A stretch of 64,000 bases of DNA from Candidatus Helarchaeota archaeon (lineage in GTDB: Archaea; Asgardarchaeota; Lokiarchaeia; Helarchaeales; RDOG01): contig JAHPZH010000003.1 in NCBI GenBank assembly GCA_019058315.1, positions 556,451-620,450 on the forward strand, given 5' to 3'. Below the pieces are notes generated by a model. It was not told where the DNA came from. It worked only from the letters and a program-made list of their open reading frames with translations, and ran no database searches. This document shows, one piece after another, positions 40,114 to 48,859 of this stretch (position 1 is its first letter; each line of letters begins with the position of its first letter). The position numbers and the translations under genes are program-made.

Positions 40114-40872
40114 TTATAAATCCATTGGATATTTTTTATTATTAAACAGATTCAAATCAATGAGTCGATATCGTTTTTCATCTTTACGATTTAAGTCGTT
40201 CAAATATAAATTTAGAATTTGTAAATTTATGAAATGCCCCACACCTTCAATTTTTCTTATTAAATTTCCTTCCAAATGGAGCTCCCTTAGATTAGGAATA
40301 TTTTCTAGCCCCTCAATTTTCTTGATTTGGTTATCATCGAGGTTCAATATCTTTAATTGAGATAATTTATCTAGACCTTCAATTTTATCTATTTGATTGC
40401 CCCTTAGGTTTAATTCATGTAGACTAGATAGAACCTCAAGCCCCTCAATCTTCTTAATTTTATTTACTTCCAAATTTAAAACTCGCAATTTGGTCAGATG
40501 CTCCAATCCTTCCAATTTTTCAATTTTATTCCAAGAGAGATTTAACCGTCTTAACTGTTTTAAACCTTCCAGACCTTGAATTTTTTGAATTTTATTATGT
40601 TGTAGATATAAATCTGTCAATTTTGGAAGGTTTTCTAATCCATATATCTCTTTAATATTATTAAAGCTAAGTTTTAACTCCCTCAAATCGTAGAGGTGCT
40701 GCAAACATTCCATTTTTTTTATGTTATTATATCGTACATTCAATAATTGTAATTGGTGTAAATTTTCAAAATATTCCAGCTTTGAAATATAATTATGATC
40801 AATATAGAGGGACCTTAAATGAGCAAAATTGTCCAAAATATCGGGAATTTTTCTTAAGCCTTTCTCGGACAA
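40114..40872 (-). CDS. SDS22-like leucine-rich repeat protein
   Basis: About nine 22-aa units of LxxLxLxxNxIxKIEGLExL. Confidence 0.92.
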   Translation of the reverse strand: MSEKGLRKIPDILDNFAHLRSLYIDHNYISKLEYFENLHQLQLLNVRYNNIKKMECLQHLYDLRELKLSFNNIKEIYGLENLPKLTDLYLQHNKIQKIQGLEGLKQLRRLNLSWNKIEKLEGLEHLTKLRVLNLEVNKIKKIEGLEVLSSLHELNLRGNQIDKIEGLDKLSQLKILNLDDNQIKKIEGLENIPNLRELHLEGNLIRKIEGVGHFINLQILNLYLNDLNRKDEKRYRLIDLNLFNNKKYPMDL

Positions 40873-40998: not shown

Positions 40999-41976
40999 CT
41001 ATCTGAAGTAATTGTCCATGGTTTGTTGCCTCATCTTAAAGTAGTCAAATGCTTTTTTCAAACGTTCAAGCCCTCTTTCAATGCGTTTTTGAGAAAATTT
41101 TCCATTCAAAAATCCTTTTAATATATGAAAATTTGGATAACGGAAATGGGGACCGAAATTAAATGATGGTGGATTTAGAAATTTTGACCGTAAAATAGTA
41201 AAATCAAATTCTAGTGGTATAAATTCTTCATTTATAGTTTCTAAATCATTGTATTTCTTTATTAATTTCAACGCTTTCTTTGGACCTATGCCTTTCACAC
41301 CTCCTTTATTTAAATCTGTTCCTATTAATAATGCTATATCAACTAATTGTTTATATGTAATCCCAAGATGAGTCAAATTATCCTTTAGTTTTATCAAAGT
41401 TAATGTATCATTTTCAAAATCCAGGTCTTTTATCATATTTTTAGATCCAAATAATAAGACATCATAATCATAAGAAACCACTCCAAAGGCATATTTTTCC
41501 CTCACAATGCGGCATGCTTGTGCTTCACCTTCGGAAGGGGCTCTTACAGCGGGTAATCCCATGAATTTTAAAAATTCAATACATTCAACAATTGCCTTAT
41601 CAAATAGAAAAGCATAATCGTTCAATGCTCTGGAATTATAATTACCATCTTGGATGCTATCGTGGTATTTTTTCCAAAGATATAACAATTTCATATTATG
41701 ATACGTGGGAACCTTCCTTTTTTCCTCCATAGGCATCCCATCGAATACATAGATTGGACGTAATTTTCGTTCCATTAAGTTTATTGTAAAGTAAAAAATT
41801 CCTATCAAGTGAGATATGGGTTCTTTTTGATTTTTTCTTAAATTTTTATCAATATGGGATATTTTAGAAATATATCGCACTAAAAAATTAGTCCCATCAA
41901 CAGCTACAGTCTTTCCTCTAATATCTTCAAATTCAACACTTTCTGTTTTTAAGATCGGTGTTAATTTACATCCCAT
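40999..41976 (-). CDS. fen: Flap endonuclease 1 (FEN1/XPG family), divergent paralog
   Basis: AVDG, VFDG, APSEGEAQA, SYDYD, IGTD, GIGPKKALKL; C-terminal PIP box QQTMDNYF. Confidence 0.88.
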   Translation of the reverse strand: MGCKLTPILKTESVEFEDIRGKTVAVDGTNFLVRYISKISHIDKNLRKNQKEPISHLIGIFYFTINLMERKLRPIYVFDGMPMEEKRKVPTYHNMKLLYLWKKYHDSIQDGNYNSRALNDYAFLFDKAIVECIEFLKFMGLPAVRAPSEGEAQACRIVREKYAFGVVSYDYDVLLFGSKNMIKDLDFENDTLTLIKLKDNLTHLGITYKQLVDIALLIGTDLNKGGVKGIGPKKALKLIKKYNDLETINEEFIPLEFDFTILRSKFLNPPSFNFGPHFRYPNFHILKGFLNGKFSQKRIERGLERLKKAFDYFKMRQQTMDNYFR

Positions 41977-42565
41977 TAAAATACCCCAATAGATTCTTTT
42001 TTCCTGGTTTCTTCAAAACAATTTCAAAAATCCCGGTTGTTCTATGGAATCCGTTATTCTGTATTAAAAGTGAGTTTAATTTCACATTCAAATAAAGCTG
42101 ATACAAAATTTCCCAATGTGTCCTGGATTGACTTTCCGTTTTTCTAATGAGATTAATCATGTTTTTTATCTCAGAATTGCTTGAAGAATATGCTATCTTT
42201 AATTTATTGACTTTCATCAGACGAATTTTTTTAGGAATATATCCTTCTCGAATTCCAAATCTTTTAGAACGATAATATAACTGCCTTAATTTCTCTTTTT
42301 TACAGAATATTAACTGACAATCGCTTATCTTACCCAAAATTAAATGAAGGAGTCGAAATTCTTCATCAATCCGTTCTATCATGAAGTTCTCTGGGAATGT
42401 TACAGGACGAGGACCTAATTTTTCAATTTCGCTGGTAATAAATTTAGTCTCATTTCCGTTATGATATACAAGATAATGTATCGAATCGCCATAGTTCTGT
42501 TTCTTTAACTTGGGATCTTCGCTTTTACCAATTTCAAAATCAAAAAATAATTGATTTATCATCAA
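41966..42565 (-). CDS. Stand-alone degenerate PolB-type 3'-5' exonuclease-like domain (tentative)
   Basis: ExoI-like LFFDFEI; EEFRLL...LYYRSKRFGI resembles the ExoII region without its N/D residues. Confidence 0.4.
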   Translation of the reverse strand: MMINQLFFDFEIGKSEDPKLKKQNYGDSIHYLVYHNGNETKFITSEIEKLGPRPVTFPENFMIERIDEEFRLLHLILGKISDCQLIFCKKEKLRQLYYRSKRFGIREGYIPKKIRLMKVNKLKIAYSSSNSEIKNMINLIRKTESQSRTHWEILYQLYLNVKLNSLLIQNNGFHRTTGIFEIVLKKPGKKNLLGYFNGM

Positions 42566-42678
42566 TTTTCACCGAAAGAAAGAACGTATTGGAGTGAATT
42601 TATAAGGTTTTCCCTCATCCAGAATTTTTGTCGGATATTCAAATAGATCTTTAAAGAAATCGAAATTTGTTTATACAA

Positions 42679-44286
42679 TTAGCTTTCAAATCCTCTTTCA
42701 CGTAATTGTCTTCGAAAGTCGTCTTCCGAAATTTCACCTTTCATTTTGGAATATTCAAGCAACTTTTGAACTCCTAATTCTGTAATTTTATAGGTGTTTC
42801 TTCTGGTCACTCCGAGGACTTCTTGACTCTGAATCAAAAAACGTAATTGTATGAGTTTATGGAGTAATACTCGCAAGACTTCATCCTCGATACCCGTAGC
42901 TGATTGAATTGAGCCATACATGATTTCATCGTATTCAGTAGCGATAGATAGAATGTTCTTAACATGTTCTGCATATTGATGGAAACTTCTTTCAATCGCA
43001 CTTCTTTCTGGGACAAATATAGGACCGAAATCCCAATCCGGATAAAACATTTTTAATCGCTCTTGAATTTCCTCGTCTTTTAGAACATGCGTTTCATCAA
43101 AATTCAGATAATCAAACATTATAGGAAAACAACTTTTTACATCGGGTCGATTAAGCAGGGCTTCACCTTCTTCCATAACTCGTAGATATTCATACTGATA
43201 TTGATATTTTCGTTTTTCAGAATAGGTCTCCGTGGTTCCCTCTTCTCGTGGTCGAAAGCTCAAATTCAATAAGGAACGTAATGCTTGGCTTTCTTCAAAA
43301 GAATGAGTTCTATGGACTATTATATTGAGAAAATTCGATAATATTTGTGGAATTATTAAAGAAGGATATTGAATCGAAGTGTGTATGCCAATATCATTAC
43401 GTCGTAATGTGCTCATCCAATTAAGCAGCGAGAAGTGAGGATCATCGTTTCTTCCAATATATAATTTCGGCTGTTCCATTCCAAAGATTAAATCTCCATC
43501 ATCTATTAGTATCATAAAATCTCTATAATTAAGAAATTTGGATAGTGTGATTATTTTGATCAATATTAGAAAAATCAAAAACCTGCGACTTCTCTTATCA
43601 TTTACATCAATTTCTATTAATGCAGGAGCATCTGATACAATTTCATAAATATTTTTCTTTGTATTAGCGATCATTCTTGTCGTTTCCCCGCTTAATAAAT
43701 TATCAATATATTTATAGACGGCATTAAATTCATTTCTTTCCTTATAGCTTATTTCAGGAGCCATAACTCCGTTCCAAAGCTCATCTGTAAAACTATTCAT
43801 TGCAGGACTATTACCATACATTTCATAGACATTTTTTAACATAGTCGAGATCGCAGCTACTATCTCATCACTGAAATTTACTGACAATCGTAACATTTCA
43901 ATAAAAAAGGGGATATAATTTTCAGCAGGTACCCCTTCAGTATCAAGTGGTCCGATAGAAATATCCTCTCCAAGACGAAATATCTTCATAGTAGGGATGA
44001 AGTCTGCAAGTCTTCGATAATTTTTATTGGAAGATATTATTATATAGGGGATATTTTTTTTCACAGATTCATAGACTATCTTGGCATTTGTTAAAAATCG
44101 TTCGAGTATGTTACTTCCAACTACGATAACTCCATTTCTCATATCATCTTCCCGTAGCCCGATGGGAAGTTCTTCATGTAAAAATTCAGTTTCTATTGTA
44201 TTTCCTAATGGACCTATCTCACTTTCTAAATTTGTAGGAACAATAAATTCCACCGGATATTGGTATGGCATCGATTTTACAGCCAT
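42679..44286 (-). CDS. HerA/FtsK/VirB4-superfamily ATPase-like domain with degenerate Walker motifs and C-terminal wHTH; probably the C-terminal part of a frameshift fusion
   Basis: PIGLREDDMRNGVIVVGSNILER, IPYIIISSNKNYRRL, ILIDDGD, LRRNDIGIHTSIQYPS..ILSN..IVHR; YKITELG. Confidence 0.7.
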   Translation of the reverse strand: MAVKSMPYQYPVEFIVPTNLESEIGPLGNTIETEFLHEELPIGLREDDMRNGVIVVGSNILERFLTNAKIVYESVKKNIPYIIISSNKNYRRLADFIPTMKIFRLGEDISIGPLDTEGVPAENYIPFFIEMLRLSVNFSDEIVAAISTMLKNVYEMYGNSPAMNSFTDELWNGVMAPEISYKERNEFNAVYKYIDNLLSGETTRMIANTKKNIYEIVSDAPALIEIDVNDKRSRRFLIFLILIKIITLSKFLNYRDFMILIDDGDLIFGMEQPKLYIGRNDDPHFSLLNWMSTLRRNDIGIHTSIQYPSLIIPQILSNFLNIIVHRTHSFEESQALRSLLNLSFRPREEGTTETYSEKRKYQYQYEYLRVMEEGEALLNRPDVKSCFPIMFDYLNFDETHVLKDEEIQERLKMFYPDWDFGPIFVPERSAIERSFHQYAEHVKNILSIATEYDEIMYGSIQSATGIEDEVLRVLLHKLIQLRFLIQSQEVLGVTRRNTYKITELGVQKLLEYSKMKGEISEDDFRRQLRERGFES

Positions 44287-44293
44287 CTTAGGA

Positions 44294-44337
44294 GCCTGGA
44301 GAAGATGATTGATCCCCTCCAGGCCTGTTAGAAAAAA
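44294..44337 (-). other. Putative programmed -1 ribosomal frameshift signal
   Basis: Slippery T TTT TTC (44337-44331), spacer TAACAG, hairpin GCCTGGAGGGGAT-CAATC-ATCTTCTCCAGGC. The -1 frame is open into ORF 42679..44286. Confidence 0.75.
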
Positions 44338-45233
44338 CGAAACTTCCCGCCGTCTGTTATCTGGACTCGTTTGGCAGCTAATAAATCCTTATCTTCAAGA
44401 AGTACTAATTTTGAATGTGGAAAATTGACCAGAAATGAGGATTCCAGCTTTTGAAGATTCAATTTCACATTTTCATAGACCTCTTGGATCGTTTCTGCTA
44501 CATTTGTCCCAATTTTTCTATTATCGGATGTCCCAAACACAATCCGTGCTTCCCAAACACCTTCCCTGTTTAAAAGAAATGAATTTAAACCATCTCCACC
44601 TAATGAATCCATAAATTTGCGCATATCTAACGTGACATTTTTCAAGCGTTTAACCTCTTTTTCATTAATTGGTGCTTGGACGTAATTCCAGAAGATAGGT
44701 ATTTTTTGACCGTAAATTGAGCGTATGAAATCATTGAATTTTCCGCTGATACTTATTGGTATTGTATCAATCTTAAAAAGCCCAAATGCCGCTATACGTC
44801 CCCGACTCTCAAAAAATAAGACATCTTTATGTAATTCTCCCGTATCCTTATCTCTATAGAAAAAACATTGTATATCATTCATGAAATCCACTGTTTCTAT
44901 AGCTGCTTTTGAAAGACTTGAAAATGCCCCCCTTATCCTGTAGGATATTTGAGGTTGTAGAAGTATTGAAAGTCCTGAAAAAACCACTATAGCAATTAGT
45001 GCTGATACAATCATATCTTGGATGAATGAAGTACATATTACCCATATGGATAAGGAAATTATCAATGTCCCTATCATTATAAATAAAATTCTTGATAAAC
45101 TAGGATGAATTATGCGATCTCCCGACCAGAAGTGTTGCGAACTCCTTAATTCTTCAGTTCTGCGTCTGTAAGCTTCATTTCTGCTTCGATTATTTCTATT
45201 ATAGATATTTCTATCATAACTTTCATCTAACAT
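44328..45233 (-). CDS. Two-TM membrane protein (probable start MLDESY at 45233); N-terminal part of the frameshift fusion
   Basis: Two adjacent TM helices followed by a soluble domain; stop codon directly follows the slippery site; AGGTGA upstream of ATG 45233. Confidence 0.7.
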   Translation of the reverse strand: MLDESYDRNIYNRNNRSRNEAYRRRTEELRSSQHFWSGDRIIHPSLSRILFIMIGTLIISLSIWVICTSFIQDMIVSALIAIVVFSGLSILLQPQISYRIRGAFSSLSKAAIETVDFMNDIQCFFYRDKDTGELHKDVLFFESRGRIAAFGLFKIDTIPISISGKFNDFIRSIYGQKIPIFWNYVQAPINEKEVKRLKNVTLDMRKFMDSLGGDGLNSFLLNREGVWEARIVFGTSDNRKIGTNVAETIQEVYENVKLNLQKLESSFLVNFPHSKLVLLEDKDLLAAKRVQITDGGKFRFF

Positions 45234-45238
45234 TCCTT

Positions 45239-45718
45239 TCACCTTTTGAAAACGTAAATTACACCTATGATTATATAATAAATAAAATAGGGCAAGAGAG
45301 ACCAATTATTACCCCAATTTGCAGGGTCCAAAAAATTTTCAACTATAAAGAAGATTGTGATTCCAAACCAGACCAAAGCCCAACCAAATGCAGCTTTCTG
45401 CCACGCATTTAGATCTACATCGGGATCATCTTGTATGTTTTTAGTGTGTCCAATCGCACCACCCCTTACCATATACATTGTTTCCGATATATTCCTTGCT
45501 TTTTCTAACAAAATTCGATTTCGCAAGTCTCTTTGTGTGTCCCTGACAGAATCTTTAATATTTTTTGTCACCATTTCTTCCGAAAACTGGTTAAATATTT
45601 TTCCAGAATCCTTTCCCTTGAATAAAAACGACTTTATAGCAAAAAAACTGATGATGGCTGCAAGTAATAAGGGCCATTGTGTTATGAATTCCAGATATCC
45701 TAAACTCATTCGTGTCAC
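45239..45718 (-). CDS. Three-TM membrane protein
   Basis: Hydrophobic segments at both ends; in the operon. Confidence 0.7.
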   Translation of the reverse strand: MTRMSLGYLEFITQWPLLLAAIISFFAIKSFLFKGKDSGKIFNQFSEEMVTKNIKDSVRDTQRDLRNRILLEKARNISETMYMVRGGAIGHTKNIQDDPDVDLNAWQKAAFGWALVWFGITIFFIVENFLDPANWGNNWSLLPYFIYYIIIGVIYVFKR

Positions 45719-45734
45719 CTACATTAATTTTAAC

Positions 45735-46085
45735 CTATAAATGAATCATTGTGAATAAGAGTAACAATGAACTACCGTCTTCAGGAGGAGGTTGAGTTGG
45801 CTGACCGTTGAATAGGAACCAGAGATACCAAAGAGTATACATTCCGATTTGACTCACTGATGTATTGAAAATTTCCATCCGATACCCAAAGATCTTGGTA
45901 AAAACTATCATGCAGACAGTAAATAGGACAAATCCAGCAAACATGTATTTGTTAAATTGCCTATTACCGATAAACATTAGAAATCCAATCATTGTAACTG
46001 CTGCAAGCAGGACTAACACTATTGTCATGAACCAAGTAGCGACTGCTTGTAAGGTTAAAGTTACATTTCCTAGAACATCAACCAT
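45735..46085 (-). CDS. Small hydrophobic protein, VirB2/TrbC/CedA1 pilin-like (tentative)
   Basis: Amphipathic helix, TM, short basic loop (GNRQFNK), TM. Confidence 0.45.
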   Translation of the reverse strand: MVDVLGNVTLTLQAVATWFMTIVLVLLAAVTMIGFLMFIGNRQFNKYMFAGFVLFTVCMIVFTKIFGYRMEIFNTSVSQIGMYTLWYLWFLFNGQPTQPPPEDGSSLLLLFTMIHL

Positions 46086-46150
46086 TTTTTCACTTTCTTC
46101 TTTTTGATTTTTTGAAAGATTCTGGTGGTATTAACTATTTAAAAAGATGA

Positions 46151-46558
46151 TCATCCATCTTGAAGGAGGATTTTTTCCAGTAATAAATCAATTTTTGACA
46201 TGGCAAAAATAGATTCAGCAAAAATGGTTATTTGTGCGAGTTGATCATTATATCCGAGATGCAAATAAAATTCCCCTGACTCATTTTTTAAATACCAGAT
46301 ATCTTCATCATTAGATACGGGTTGAAATCCTAAACCTAAAAGGTATTCCTTAAAATTATTTAGATCTTCGTCATCAGCAAATCTCAATATTCGTTTAGTT
46401 TTGTATCTATCCCTTAAAAAATACGGTTCTCTGATGATTGTATCCCTATCTGGTATCGGAAACATTATTTTATTGTATATTATAATCCCTATGACTATGA
46501 TAACTAAAAAAATCACCAAACCGATGATTGAACCTAACAATTCTGCGTAATTTTCCAT
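46151..46558 (-). CDS. Single-TM protein, first gene of the membrane/ATPase operon
   Basis: N-terminal TM segment plus small soluble domain. Confidence 0.7.
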   Translation of the reverse strand: MENYAELLGSIIGLVIFLVIIVIGIIIYNKIMFPIPDRDTIIREPYFLRDRYKTKRILRFADDEDLNNFKEYLLGLGFQPVSNDEDIWYLKNESGEFYLHLGYNDQLAQITIFAESIFAMSKIDLLLEKILLQDG

Positions 46559-46624
46559 TTTACAATCAGACTTATAAAGTCACTATAATGCTTTTTAAAA
46601 CTTATGTAAAAAAGGTGAATTTTC
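46559..46624. promoter_or_regulatory. Compact divergent promoter region
   Basis: 66 bp between divergent start codons, with TATA-like cttataaag and ctttttaaaa. Confidence 0.5.
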
Positions 46625-48859
46625 ATGGCTTTCGAATTGAAACGTTTTGGCTTGGATCAGAGGATAGTTGATATATTAATAGACCACAAAATTACAGAAC
46701 TGCGAGAAATTCAGAAAAAAGCTTTGAGATTGGGGCTCTTAAAAGGTCGAAAATTGCTTATCGTTGCACCTTCGGGATCTGGAAAAACCCTTATAGGAGA
46801 AATTGCTGCGGTTGATAGGATATTAAAACAAGGGACAAAAAGCGTCTTTTTAGTTCCTTTAAAAGCTATTGCTAATGAGAAATATGCTGAATTCACTGAA
46901 AAATATTCAAAATTAGGAATAAGTATTGCTTTGAGAACCGGGGATATCAAGGATGAACGATTGGATGTATTAAAATTCGACTTAATTATTTCGACATATG
47001 AACGATTCGATTCGTTGCTACGAACTGTTGTAGAAAAGGAGGAAAATTGGCTGGGGACAGTCGGCACAATTGTTATTGATGAAATTCATATATTAAATGA
47101 TTATTATCGAGGTCCAAGACTAGAGGGATTGATAAACAGGTTGCAACTTTATGCTTCAGATACTCAAATTATCGCACTTTCTGCAACCATTGCCAATCCC
47201 GAAGAACTTGCATTATGGTTAAATTGTAACCTAGTAAAAAGTGACCACCGACCAGTTCCCCTTGCATATGAAATTGTAGCGACTGCTGATAAAATTATTA
47301 CTATAAACAAATATGTGATTGAGACCTTGAAGCAAAATGGGCAGGTCCTCGTTTTTGCAAAGACTCGAAAGGAGGCCCAAGCATTAGCAAGGGGGCTTAC
47401 CACGGTGCTCCTTGAACATAAATTGTTAGATTCTGATGCACGTGTAAAACTAAATAACATATTTAAAAATGTGGAAATGACGCAGCGAGCAAAGTTGGAC
47501 CGGAGTCTTATAAGTGCATTGAGGTTTGGTGTTGCATATCATCATGCAGGGCTTGCATTATCTACAAGAAAGCTAGTTGAAGATAATTTTCGCGATCATT
47601 TGATTAAAGTAGTTTGTTGCACTACTACACTTGCTGCTGGGGTAAATCTCCCAGCAATGACTGTAATAGTTAAGGATTGCCAAGTAATTACCACTGATCC
47701 TAATCTAATTGTCGGTGATGATAGTCTCTATTGGCGAAATCAATTGGAACCCAATTTGCTTCACCAAATTTTAGGCAGGGCAGGAAGACCGGGCTATGAT
47801 GATGTAGGTATAGGTATTATTCTGACACCCACGAATGTCGACAAGAATAGGATTGAGCAATACTACTTTCATAGGCATAATGGAACTCTCTATCCTAAAT
47901 ATACAAATGTAAAAAGTAAATTAAACCAGAGAGAAGAACTCAAAGAGCAAGTATTAGTGAGAATACGTGAAAAAAAAGCTATGACTGCTCGACAAATATT
48001 AGATGACTTTCAAGGTTCTCTTTTATGGCACCAAATTCAATACGAAGATCCCTCAAAACCCATAGATCAATTGATAGAGATAGGTGCAATTTCCATCCAA
48101 AAAACTATTGAGGAACTTTCGGATGCGGAAATAAGGAAAAAAGCAAGGGCTATTCCAGATGGAGCGGTTCAAATCACGAAAGTCGATGAAAAAATACTTC
48201 AAGGGATTGTTTCTTCCAACATATCCCATACTTGCGCTCTATTTAGAGACTTTCCAAGCTGCACCTGTAGGGAGTTTAAGTTTAGGGAGACGACTGGTCA
48301 AATTACATTATGTAGACATTTGATAAAACTGATTGAGGTCGGATTAAAACATTACCCAAGCTTGACAAATGACTTGGCTTGTCTTTCCCTTCAAAAAGAA
48401 TTTATAATGGACTCCTTGGTAAAAGGGAATATGGTCAGATTAAGGGGGGATGAATATGTTCTTACTCCATTGGGTGATCTAATTGTCACAGCATATATTA
48501 AACCCCAAACAGCACCTGTAATAAGGGCCCATCTTGCGAGAATGACTTCAATTGCTGAAGTTTTAGAAGCTATTAGAGGAATATATACCGTTGAGATGCA
48601 TAAATATGTGGATTCAGACTTTGCTCAAATCATGTCCTATGTAATTGAACGTCCTCCAGGTGAAGATATAATGCCAAGGATTCTAGAGACATCTGAAAAA
48701 TATTTTAAAGGTCAGGGAGATATTGAGGAATTTATTTCCTTTACAAAATGGATATTAAGTGCGATAAAGAAGTTTGGGGAGCTATATGAAGTTGAGAATG
48801 CTGTTTATTATGCTGAAGAAATTGAAAGATTGTTAGAAATACCAAGAGAAGAAGAATAG
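46625..48859 (+). CDS. Ski2/Hel308-like SF2 helicase with inserted SWIM zinc finger
   Basis: APSGSGKT, VPLKAIANEK, DEIH, LSAT, HHAGL, TTTLAAGVNLPA, QILGRAGRPG; SWIM motif CTC...CRH. Confidence 0.9.
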   Translation: MAFELKRFGLDQRIVDILIDHKITELREIQKKALRLGLLKGRKLLIVAPSGSGKTLIGEIAAVDRILKQGTKSVFLVPLKAIANEKYAEFTEKYSKLGISIALRTGDIKDERLDVLKFDLIISTYERFDSLLRTVVEKEENWLGTVGTIVIDEIHILNDYYRGPRLEGLINRLQLYASDTQIIALSATIANPEELALWLNCNLVKSDHRPVPLAYEIVATADKIITINKYVIETLKQNGQVLVFAKTRKEAQALARGLTTVLLEHKLLDSDARVKLNNIFKNVEMTQRAKLDRSLISALRFGVAYHHAGLALSTRKLVEDNFRDHLIKVVCCTTTLAAGVNLPAMTVIVKDCQVITTDPNLIVGDDSLYWRNQLEPNLLHQILGRAGRPGYDDVGIGIILTPTNVDKNRIEQYYFHRHNGTLYPKYTNVKSKLNQREELKEQVLVRIREKKAMTARQILDDFQGSLLWHQIQYEDPSKPIDQLIEIGAISIQKTIEELSDAEIRKKARAIPDGAVQITKVDEKILQGIVSSNISHTCALFRDFPSCTCREFKFRETTGQITLCRHLIKLIEVGLKHYPSLTNDLACLSLQKEFIMDSLVKGNMVRLRGDEYVLTPLGDLIVTAYIKPQTAPVIRAHLARMTSIAEVLEAIRGIYTVEMHKYVDSDFAQIMSYVIERPPGEDIMPRILETSEKYFKGQGDIEEFISFTKWILSAIKKFGELYEVENAVYYAEEIERLLEIPREEE

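Follow-up and report, generated by a model that had tools for sequence, protein, structure and literature searches.

Within a 64,000-nucleotide stretch of a Candidatus Helarchaeota genome (GenBank assembly GCA_019058315.1, contig JAHPZH010000003.1, positions 556,451 to 620,450 of the forward strand), which we call the window and whose own numbering is used throughout, two consecutive minus-strand open reading frames (ORFs) are very probably, judging from sequence comparisons, one gene that would be decoded by programmed ribosomal frameshifting of the -1 type (-1 PRF) into an 851-aa membrane-anchored HerA/VirB4-like protein. This reading is carried by the frameshift signal at the junction of the two ORFs, its conservation in distant relatives, its association with the split form of the gene, selection on both halves, and the colinearity of the conceptual product with orthologues encoded by one uninterrupted ORF. 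The mechanism is canonical, and the site is notable for the lineage in which it occurs and for the breadth of its conservation.

The junction and its proposed decoding

On the minus strand the junction reads GGG AAG TTT CGT TTT TTC TAA CAG GCC TGG, with the codons CGT at 44339-37, TTT at 44336-34, TTC at 44333-31 and TAA at 44330-28. Its elements, in order of translation, are the following.

44328..45233, minus strand: upstream 0-frame ORF, 301 aa, from ATG 45233 to TAA 44330-44328; N-terminal part
44331..44337, minus strand: slippery heptamer U UUU UUC in X XXY YYZ phase, 0-frame codons UUU UUC
44328..44330, minus strand: 0-frame stop UAA, immediately 3′ of the heptamer
44330-44325, minus strand: 6-nt spacer TAACAG between heptamer and stem
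44294..44324, minus strand: putative stimulatory hairpin with a 13-bp stem (2 G-U pairs) and a 5-nt loop, beginning 6 nt past the heptamer
44324-44312, minus strand: 5′ arm of the hairpin, GCCTGGAGGGGAT
44311-44307, minus strand: loop of the hairpin, CAATC
44306-44294, minus strand: 3′ arm of the hairpin, ATCTTCTCCAGGC
44287..44331, minus strand: linker LTGLEGINHLLQAPK, codons read in the -1 frame only, before that frame's first start codon
44286-44284, minus strand: downstream ATG, past the hairpin
42679..44286, minus strand: downstream ORF as annotated, 535 aa; it would be read from 44331 in a frameshift product

The sequence-only reading of this DNA had described an in-phase U UUU UUC directly before the stop, a 6-nt spacer leading to a 13-bp hairpin with two G-U pairs, and a fusion of about 851 aa starting at ATG 45233, and all of these were recovered when the minus strand was read again. 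The hairpin folds at -23.5 kcal/mol against -10.4 for shuffled sequences (z = -4.7), and the two ORFs stand in a -1 relation, the -1 frame reading FFLTGLEGINHLLQAPKMAVKSM into the 535-aa ORF to give a conceptual product of 851 aa, for which the predicted tryptic junction peptide is FFLTGLEGINHLLQAPK. The upstream ORF was listed as 44328..45305; its likely start is ATG 45233, which is backed by orthologue lengths of 299-300 aa and by a GGTGA Shine-Dalgarno (SD)-like motif 5 nt upstream.

Between its preceding stop and ATG 44286 the -1 frame contains no ATG, GTG or TTG, which places its first start codon in the window 42 nt past the stop of the upstream ORF and 17 codons past the heptamer. No SD-like motif precedes ATG 44286; in three other genes of the operon, (G)GTGA stands 4-7 nt ahead of the start. 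Across the whole 5.79-Mb genome, nine X XXY YYZ heptamers directly followed by a stop lie between open stretches of 150 codons or more each, upstream in frame 0 and downstream in frame -1, and the window site is the only one of the nine with a strong stem (-0.9 to -6.7 for the others). The other eight were rejected as ordinary adjacent genes with start codons nearby.

If the site works as proposed, ribosomes translating the 301-codon membrane-anchor ORF would reach U UUU UUC with UAA as the next codon and the hairpin, 6 nt downstream, at the mRNA entrance. One fraction would terminate at UAA and yield the 301-aa N-terminal protein, and the other would slip by -1, the P-site tRNA-Phe re-pairing from UUU to UUU and the A-site tRNA-Phe from UUC to UUU; alternatively, a single P-site tRNA-Phe would slip while the stop codon occupies the A site. 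Decoding would then resume at CUA ACA GGC and produce the 851-aa protein (...RFF-LTGLEGINHLLQAPKMAVKS...), in which the anchor is followed by a P-loop domain, HerA/VirB4-like and probably inactive, and by a winged helix. Slippage itself, its efficiency, and its role, which would be to fix the ratio of short to long product, are what we infer here. The sequence-only reading had placed this ratio in a transport complex, which would be conjecture.

Conservation across split and fused orthologues

Orthologues were sought among relatives, metagenome contigs, genome contigs, protein representatives and 400 genomes of the phylum. This search yielded 20 distinct junctions that are split at the same alignment column, all in the -1 relation, from at least five Asgard families: f1, f3, f19 (3 genomes), f21 (6 genomes, one of them closed) and further metagenome lineages. 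Every one of the 20 carries T TTT TT[C/T] followed by TAA or TGA, and the first Phe codon of the heptamer is TTT throughout. The codon before the heptamer varies among CGT, GCT, AGT, CAT and AAT (R, A, S, H and N) and ends in T in 20/20. Both halves of the gene show dN/dS of 0.07-0.32, while within-clade dS is saturated (1.3-2.9); an invariant signal despite saturated dS, together with low dN/dS, means that the signal is held by selection and that neither half is decaying.

Three close homologues, L013 (JGI), L014 (an NCBI metagenome-assembled genome) and L015 (Logan), are 65-73% identical. L013 and L014 have CGT TTT TTC followed by TGA or TAA and a stem. L015, at 63-65% identity to the window protein, is in frame at the site: the heptamer is lost (CGTTTTCTTCTG; CGT TTT CTT CTG), there is no stop, and the stem is reduced to -9.9 kcal/mol (z -0.4 to -0.7). 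An in-phase heptamer is likewise absent from fused L003, L004, L005, L032 and L033, and all fused forms lack both the stop and a strong stem. Fused L028 retains TTT TTC in phase without a stop or a stem; its call as a protein of 519 aa was rejected on finding that it is really a fused form cut by the contig end. We also noted in L015, a Logan contig of 4.3 kb, another -1 frame break at 2280-2290 (GAA GGG / GTA TGG), some 75 codons upstream of the canonical site and with no slippery motif; its probable cause is an error of assembly or a mutation private to this sequence in a G run.

The hairpin follows the same division. Among the 20 split junctions, 16 have a hairpin that begins 3-7 nt past the heptamer and folds at between -15 and -25 kcal/mol, with z between -1.5 and -4.7; for ten fused or two-gene forms the values lie between -3.3 and -13.5 kcal/mol, with z between +0.8 and -1.6. 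Stem sequence and register differ among the split clades, the window clade pairing GCCUGGAG/CUCCAGGC, the GC-rich split clade GCACC...GGUGC, f19 GGCGGAAUC/GAUUCCGCC, and part of f21 GGUUGGAG-GCGA-CUCCAACC. Base composition was rejected as the source of these stems: fused L032, with a GC content of 0.58, gives z +0.6, and in the tree it groups with the GC-rich split clade. Between the window and L013, one pair shows a compensatory change from C-G to U-A.

A further line of evidence comes from the protein sequence on either side of the junction. Orthologues of 815-850 aa encoded by one ORF (L003, L004, L005, L017, L028, L032, L033 and many representatives) are colinear with the 851-aa conceptual product, and the upstream 301-aa ORF is homologous to their N-terminal third. 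Over the 16 residues formed by the 15 linker codons and Met 44286, the window is identical to L003 and L005 at 9/16 and 10/16 positions, respectively, and the overall identity of these two orthologues to the window protein is 29-34%. Among split forms, substitutions fall mainly at third positions of the -1 frame. In f19 the -1 frame has its first ATG at codon 51, past PAEFIVPT, the family's most conserved motif, at codon 27, and in L046 no GTG or TTG precedes the motif either; the conserved N-terminal segment of the downstream part can therefore be made there only by a change of frame.

The sequence-only reading had proposed comparing orthologues for a conserved heptamer, a covarying stem or naturally fused genes. 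Heptamer, stop and stem proved to be kept in orthologues, and naturally fused genes colinear across the junction exist. For covariation there is the one compensatory pair in L013, and the global consensus, described below, is weak. Each computational check that this reading had named as able to refute it came out in its favour.

A quick tree of the downstream domain, in which some branches are long, places the split state with the signal in at least three or four clades interspersed with fused forms, and the two-gene forms in one clade. Such a distribution is compatible with an old site mended time and again by insertion of one base (compare TTTTTTC-ATT in fused L028 with TTTTTTC-TA in the window) and equally with repeated gain at an indel-prone T run. 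On balance, we lean towards an old Asgard recoding site, at which the same column would alternate between a fused ORF, a -1 PRF site (U UUU UUY with stop and hairpin) and a two-gene split, the frameshifting state having been kept for a long time in several classes. If this is true, Asgard ribosomes would respond to a slippery site and hairpin of the kind found in eukaryotic viruses, no cellular -1 frameshift known in Archaea would be more widely conserved than this one, and the family would offer a natural system for studying the origin and loss of frameshift sites. The existence of three architectures suggests an uncharacterised complex in which the ratio of anchor alone to anchor joined to the HerA-like domain can be tuned, encoded beside a Hel308-like helicase and, in the window clade, FEN1.

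Alternative readings: separate initiation, transcriptional slippage and loss of frame

Several observations weigh against frameshifting as the explanation, some of them concerning the stem. Four near-identical genomes of genus g58 in f21 (L039, L040, L041 and L043) keep CAT TTT TTC TAA with only a weak stem (junction at ~1504-1560; -7 to -11 kcal/mol, z about 0). L042 and L044, of the same genus, carry a tetraloop on a perfect stem of 8-9 bp. A global RNAalifold consensus of 11 split junctions is weak (-5.9 kcal/mol, covariation term -0.05), and column-wise covariation is thin, with one compensatory pair within the window clade. The poor consensus arises because the clades pair in different registers, and the evidence for the stem is therefore its repeated stability rather than family-wide covariation of columns. 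In addition, the stem overlaps conserved codons, and coding could account for part of its conservation. The remaining observations bear on whether the ORFs are two separate genes, with the downstream protein initiated at AUG 44286 or by termination-reinitiation after UAA and with heptamer and stem as by-products of coding. We consider this unlikely for the window, yet it describes one clade well: L030/L048 and L031/L051 are true two-gene splits, in which a GGAGG-type SD and an ATG overlap the upstream ORF. Their split lies at the same column and in the same -1 relation, with an overlap of ~31 nt (L030:2470-2540, L031:2480-2540), and neither the heptamer nor a strong stem is present. The existence of this clade shows that the downstream part can function as a separate polypeptide. 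Moreover, stop and start overlap as UGAUG or UAAUG in L013 and L014, and UUGA occurs in the forms with eight Ts, where translational coupling, as in L013 and L014, may add to or replace slippage; Met is also common at the PKM position. Against separate initiation stand the start-free -1 frame of the window and the missing SD at its first ATG: a start codon at the upstream stop, usually with an SD, is the feature of a coupled two-gene operon, and it is found in L030, L031, L048 and L051 and is absent from the window. The 15 linker codons ahead of ATG 44286 are conserved as protein with fused orthologues, L002 and L022 have no Met at PKM, and the first ATG of f19 lies past the conserved motif. 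Separate initiation also leaves unexplained the invariance of U UUU UUY, including the wobble T of an otherwise variable codon, and the restriction of strong stems to split forms without an SD and ATG of their own.

Two other explanations start from the T run itself rather than from the ribosome. By transcriptional slippage, RNA polymerase would add one U in the run of six Ts (eight in some relatives), and part of the mRNA would then contain a single in-frame ORF. The site is indeed homopolymeric and the fused protein would be closely similar, but productive transcriptional slippage needs runs of about 8-9 or more, and in most orthologues the run ends after six Ts, with C next; nor would it account for the conserved phase of the run, the stop directly behind it or the downstream hairpin, and we consider it very unlikely. 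It is more improbable still that a one-base deletion at the T run, whether a sequencing error or the mark of a pseudogene, broke a formerly fused gene. T runs are hot spots for indels, fused L028 and the window differ by a single base at the site, and the genome, in 12 contigs, may derive from long reads. The sequence-only reading had asked whether reads show six or seven Ts, and six were found in independent assemblies, the comparison being made on assembled contigs. The site is matched exactly by Logan contigs from the probable source run (depth 17), with no indel in the T run; an independent marine-sediment contig from 2019 is 97% identical over 44128-44594, with 15 substitutions and 0 gaps; and the same frame structure is present in JGI, NCBI, ENA and Logan assemblies and in a closed 1-contig genome (G157). 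Sequencing error was rejected on this agreement and on the orthologues, 20 of which share the split state. A pseudogene was rejected on the intact downstream ORF and its dN/dS of 0.08-0.09 in the window clade, both halves being intact and under purifying selection even where dS is saturated.

The encoded protein and comparison with known systems

The upstream part is predicted to contain transmembrane helices, in agreement with its earlier description as a membrane protein, and an alpha/beta domain. The downstream ORF comprises a HerA/VirB4-like domain of P-loop fold with a degenerate Walker A motif, followed by a C-terminal winged helix. Searches of Pfam, NCBIfam and PADLOC gave no significant match for either ORF or for the small neighbouring ORFs; the downstream protein P0002 has only a sub-threshold match to HTH_34, and neither it nor its close relatives match DUF87 or HerA_C. 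A search with a family profile collected 873 representatives, of which distant ones carry the Pfam domains DUF87, HerA_C and TraG P-loop. A sequence-profile search of PDB gave only E 0.03-0.3, with TdpA and YjgR at E 0.1-0.3.

Fold comparison was made on the fused orthologue L003. In its AlphaFold2 model (predicted local distance difference test score, pLDDT, of 85), three helices long enough to span a membrane stand at the N-terminus; the rest comprises an alpha/beta domain, a P-loop core and, at the C-terminus, a winged helix. The junction falls at residues 283-285 of the model, right after a low-confidence loop (273-278), and the model suggests that it lies at a domain boundary. The best Foldseek matches were HerA 4d2i (E 2.5e-13) and the TrwK/VirB4 structures 8rtd and 7o42, and the VirB4 C-terminal domain 4ag5 matched with a TM-score of 0.71 by target. 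The earlier HerA/VirB4-like assignment thus stands at the level of fold and superfamily, through these matches and the DUF87 and HerA_C domains of distant profile members. Its description as ATPase-like stands only in part: the fold agrees, but the Walker A lysine is absent. The corresponding position in the window (P0002 residues ~52-66) reads VVGSNILERF, without GK[ST], and the lysine is missing from 38/38 aligned members of the ~800-aa subfamily, in which an Arg (E/Q-R-F) is conserved instead. With the lysine absent family-wide, the domain is probably a catalytically inactive pseudo-ATPase.

The neighbourhood of the gene (40999-48859 in the window) is conserved with L013, L014, L030 and L031. 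It comprises a Hel308-like helicase (DEAD/Helicase_C), the split gene, two or three small ORFs without family matches (135, 116 and 159 aa in the window) and an ORF of 185-199 aa. The Hel308-like helicase gene adjoins in several clades, and FEN1 (XPG_N/XPG_I) in the window clade; no type IV secretion system or NurA partner genes were seen. Just downstream of FEN1 in the window (40114-40872, minus strand) is a gene for a 252-aa protein made up almost entirely of leucine-rich repeats (LRR_4, E 1e-35). The loci of the two-gene clade adjoin NifH-like and Oxidored_nitro genes. At the fused-form locus of L033 (4047-5544), the next downstream gene encodes more than 790 aa with a weak HerA_C match and would count as another HerA-like gene beside the pseudo-ATPase. 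Family f4 of the same class has a related subfamily (e.g. L006-L012 and L053-L063) made up of single ORFs of 1230-1340 aa, in which a much longer N-terminal part precedes the homologous region, beginning near residue 500.

In IS3-family OrfA/OrfAB and retroviral gag-pol, frame 0 yields a short product, and a -1 shift at a heptamer with spacer and downstream structure yields a long fusion, which sets the ratio of short to long. The window gene would follow the same logic of short and long products, but it is a cellular gene of the chromosome, not a mobile one, whose conserved neighbourhood includes a Hel308-like helicase, and its stimulator is apparently a simple hairpin. Similarly, the family shares the fold of the HerA/VirB4 (TrwK) ATPases of the FtsK-HerA superfamily, as the match of fused L003 indicates, and differs from them in the replaced Walker A GK[ST], the N-terminal membrane anchor and the C-terminal winged helix. 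Annotations of these organisms' genomes list two genes or let the second begin at an internal Met, so they miss the 815-850-aa product.

For Archaea, the sequence-only reading had noted that few cases are known. This agrees with a 2021 review in which -1 PRF is demonstrated for one gene only, fucA1 (PMC8211752), although a conserved cluster of predicted -1 frameshifts has also been reported in Mg-chelatase (chlD-like) genes, including those of Methanocaldococcus and Methanococcus (PMC3711429). Our literature searches turned up no work on frameshifting for Asgard archaea or Helarchaeota, nor any for archaeal VirB4/HerA-like genes. Given the Mg-chelatase cluster, the window site should not be called the first conserved archaeal case. 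Like the window site, that cluster is a conserved, computed -1 transition in archaeal cellular genes with fused homologues elsewhere; unlike it, the cluster uses poly-A runs whose efficiency in E. coli cassettes tracks run length, belongs to another protein family and has no reported Asgard members (PMC3711429).

A close parallel with experimental support is fucA1, the alpha-L-fucosidase gene of Saccharolobus solfataricus (PMC1616953, PMC8211752). Both are archaeal cellular genes with two ORFs in a -1 relation, an X XXY YYZ heptamer, a putative downstream stem-loop and a full-length product colinear with uninterrupted homologues. The fucA1 heptamer is A-rich, with flanking rare codons and a 40-bp ORF overlap, whereas the window has U UUU UUC with the stop directly after it. 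Interrupted fucA1 has been reported only in S. solfataricus strains P2 and 98/2, other homologues being full length (PMC8211752); the window site, predicted from sequence, persists in at least five Asgard families whose proteins share about 25-30% identity. With at least 20 genomes in these families, the comparative case is much stronger than for fucA1, the fused and two-gene forms of the same gene serve as built-in natural controls, and the phenomenon is placed in the archaeal lineage closest to eukaryotes.

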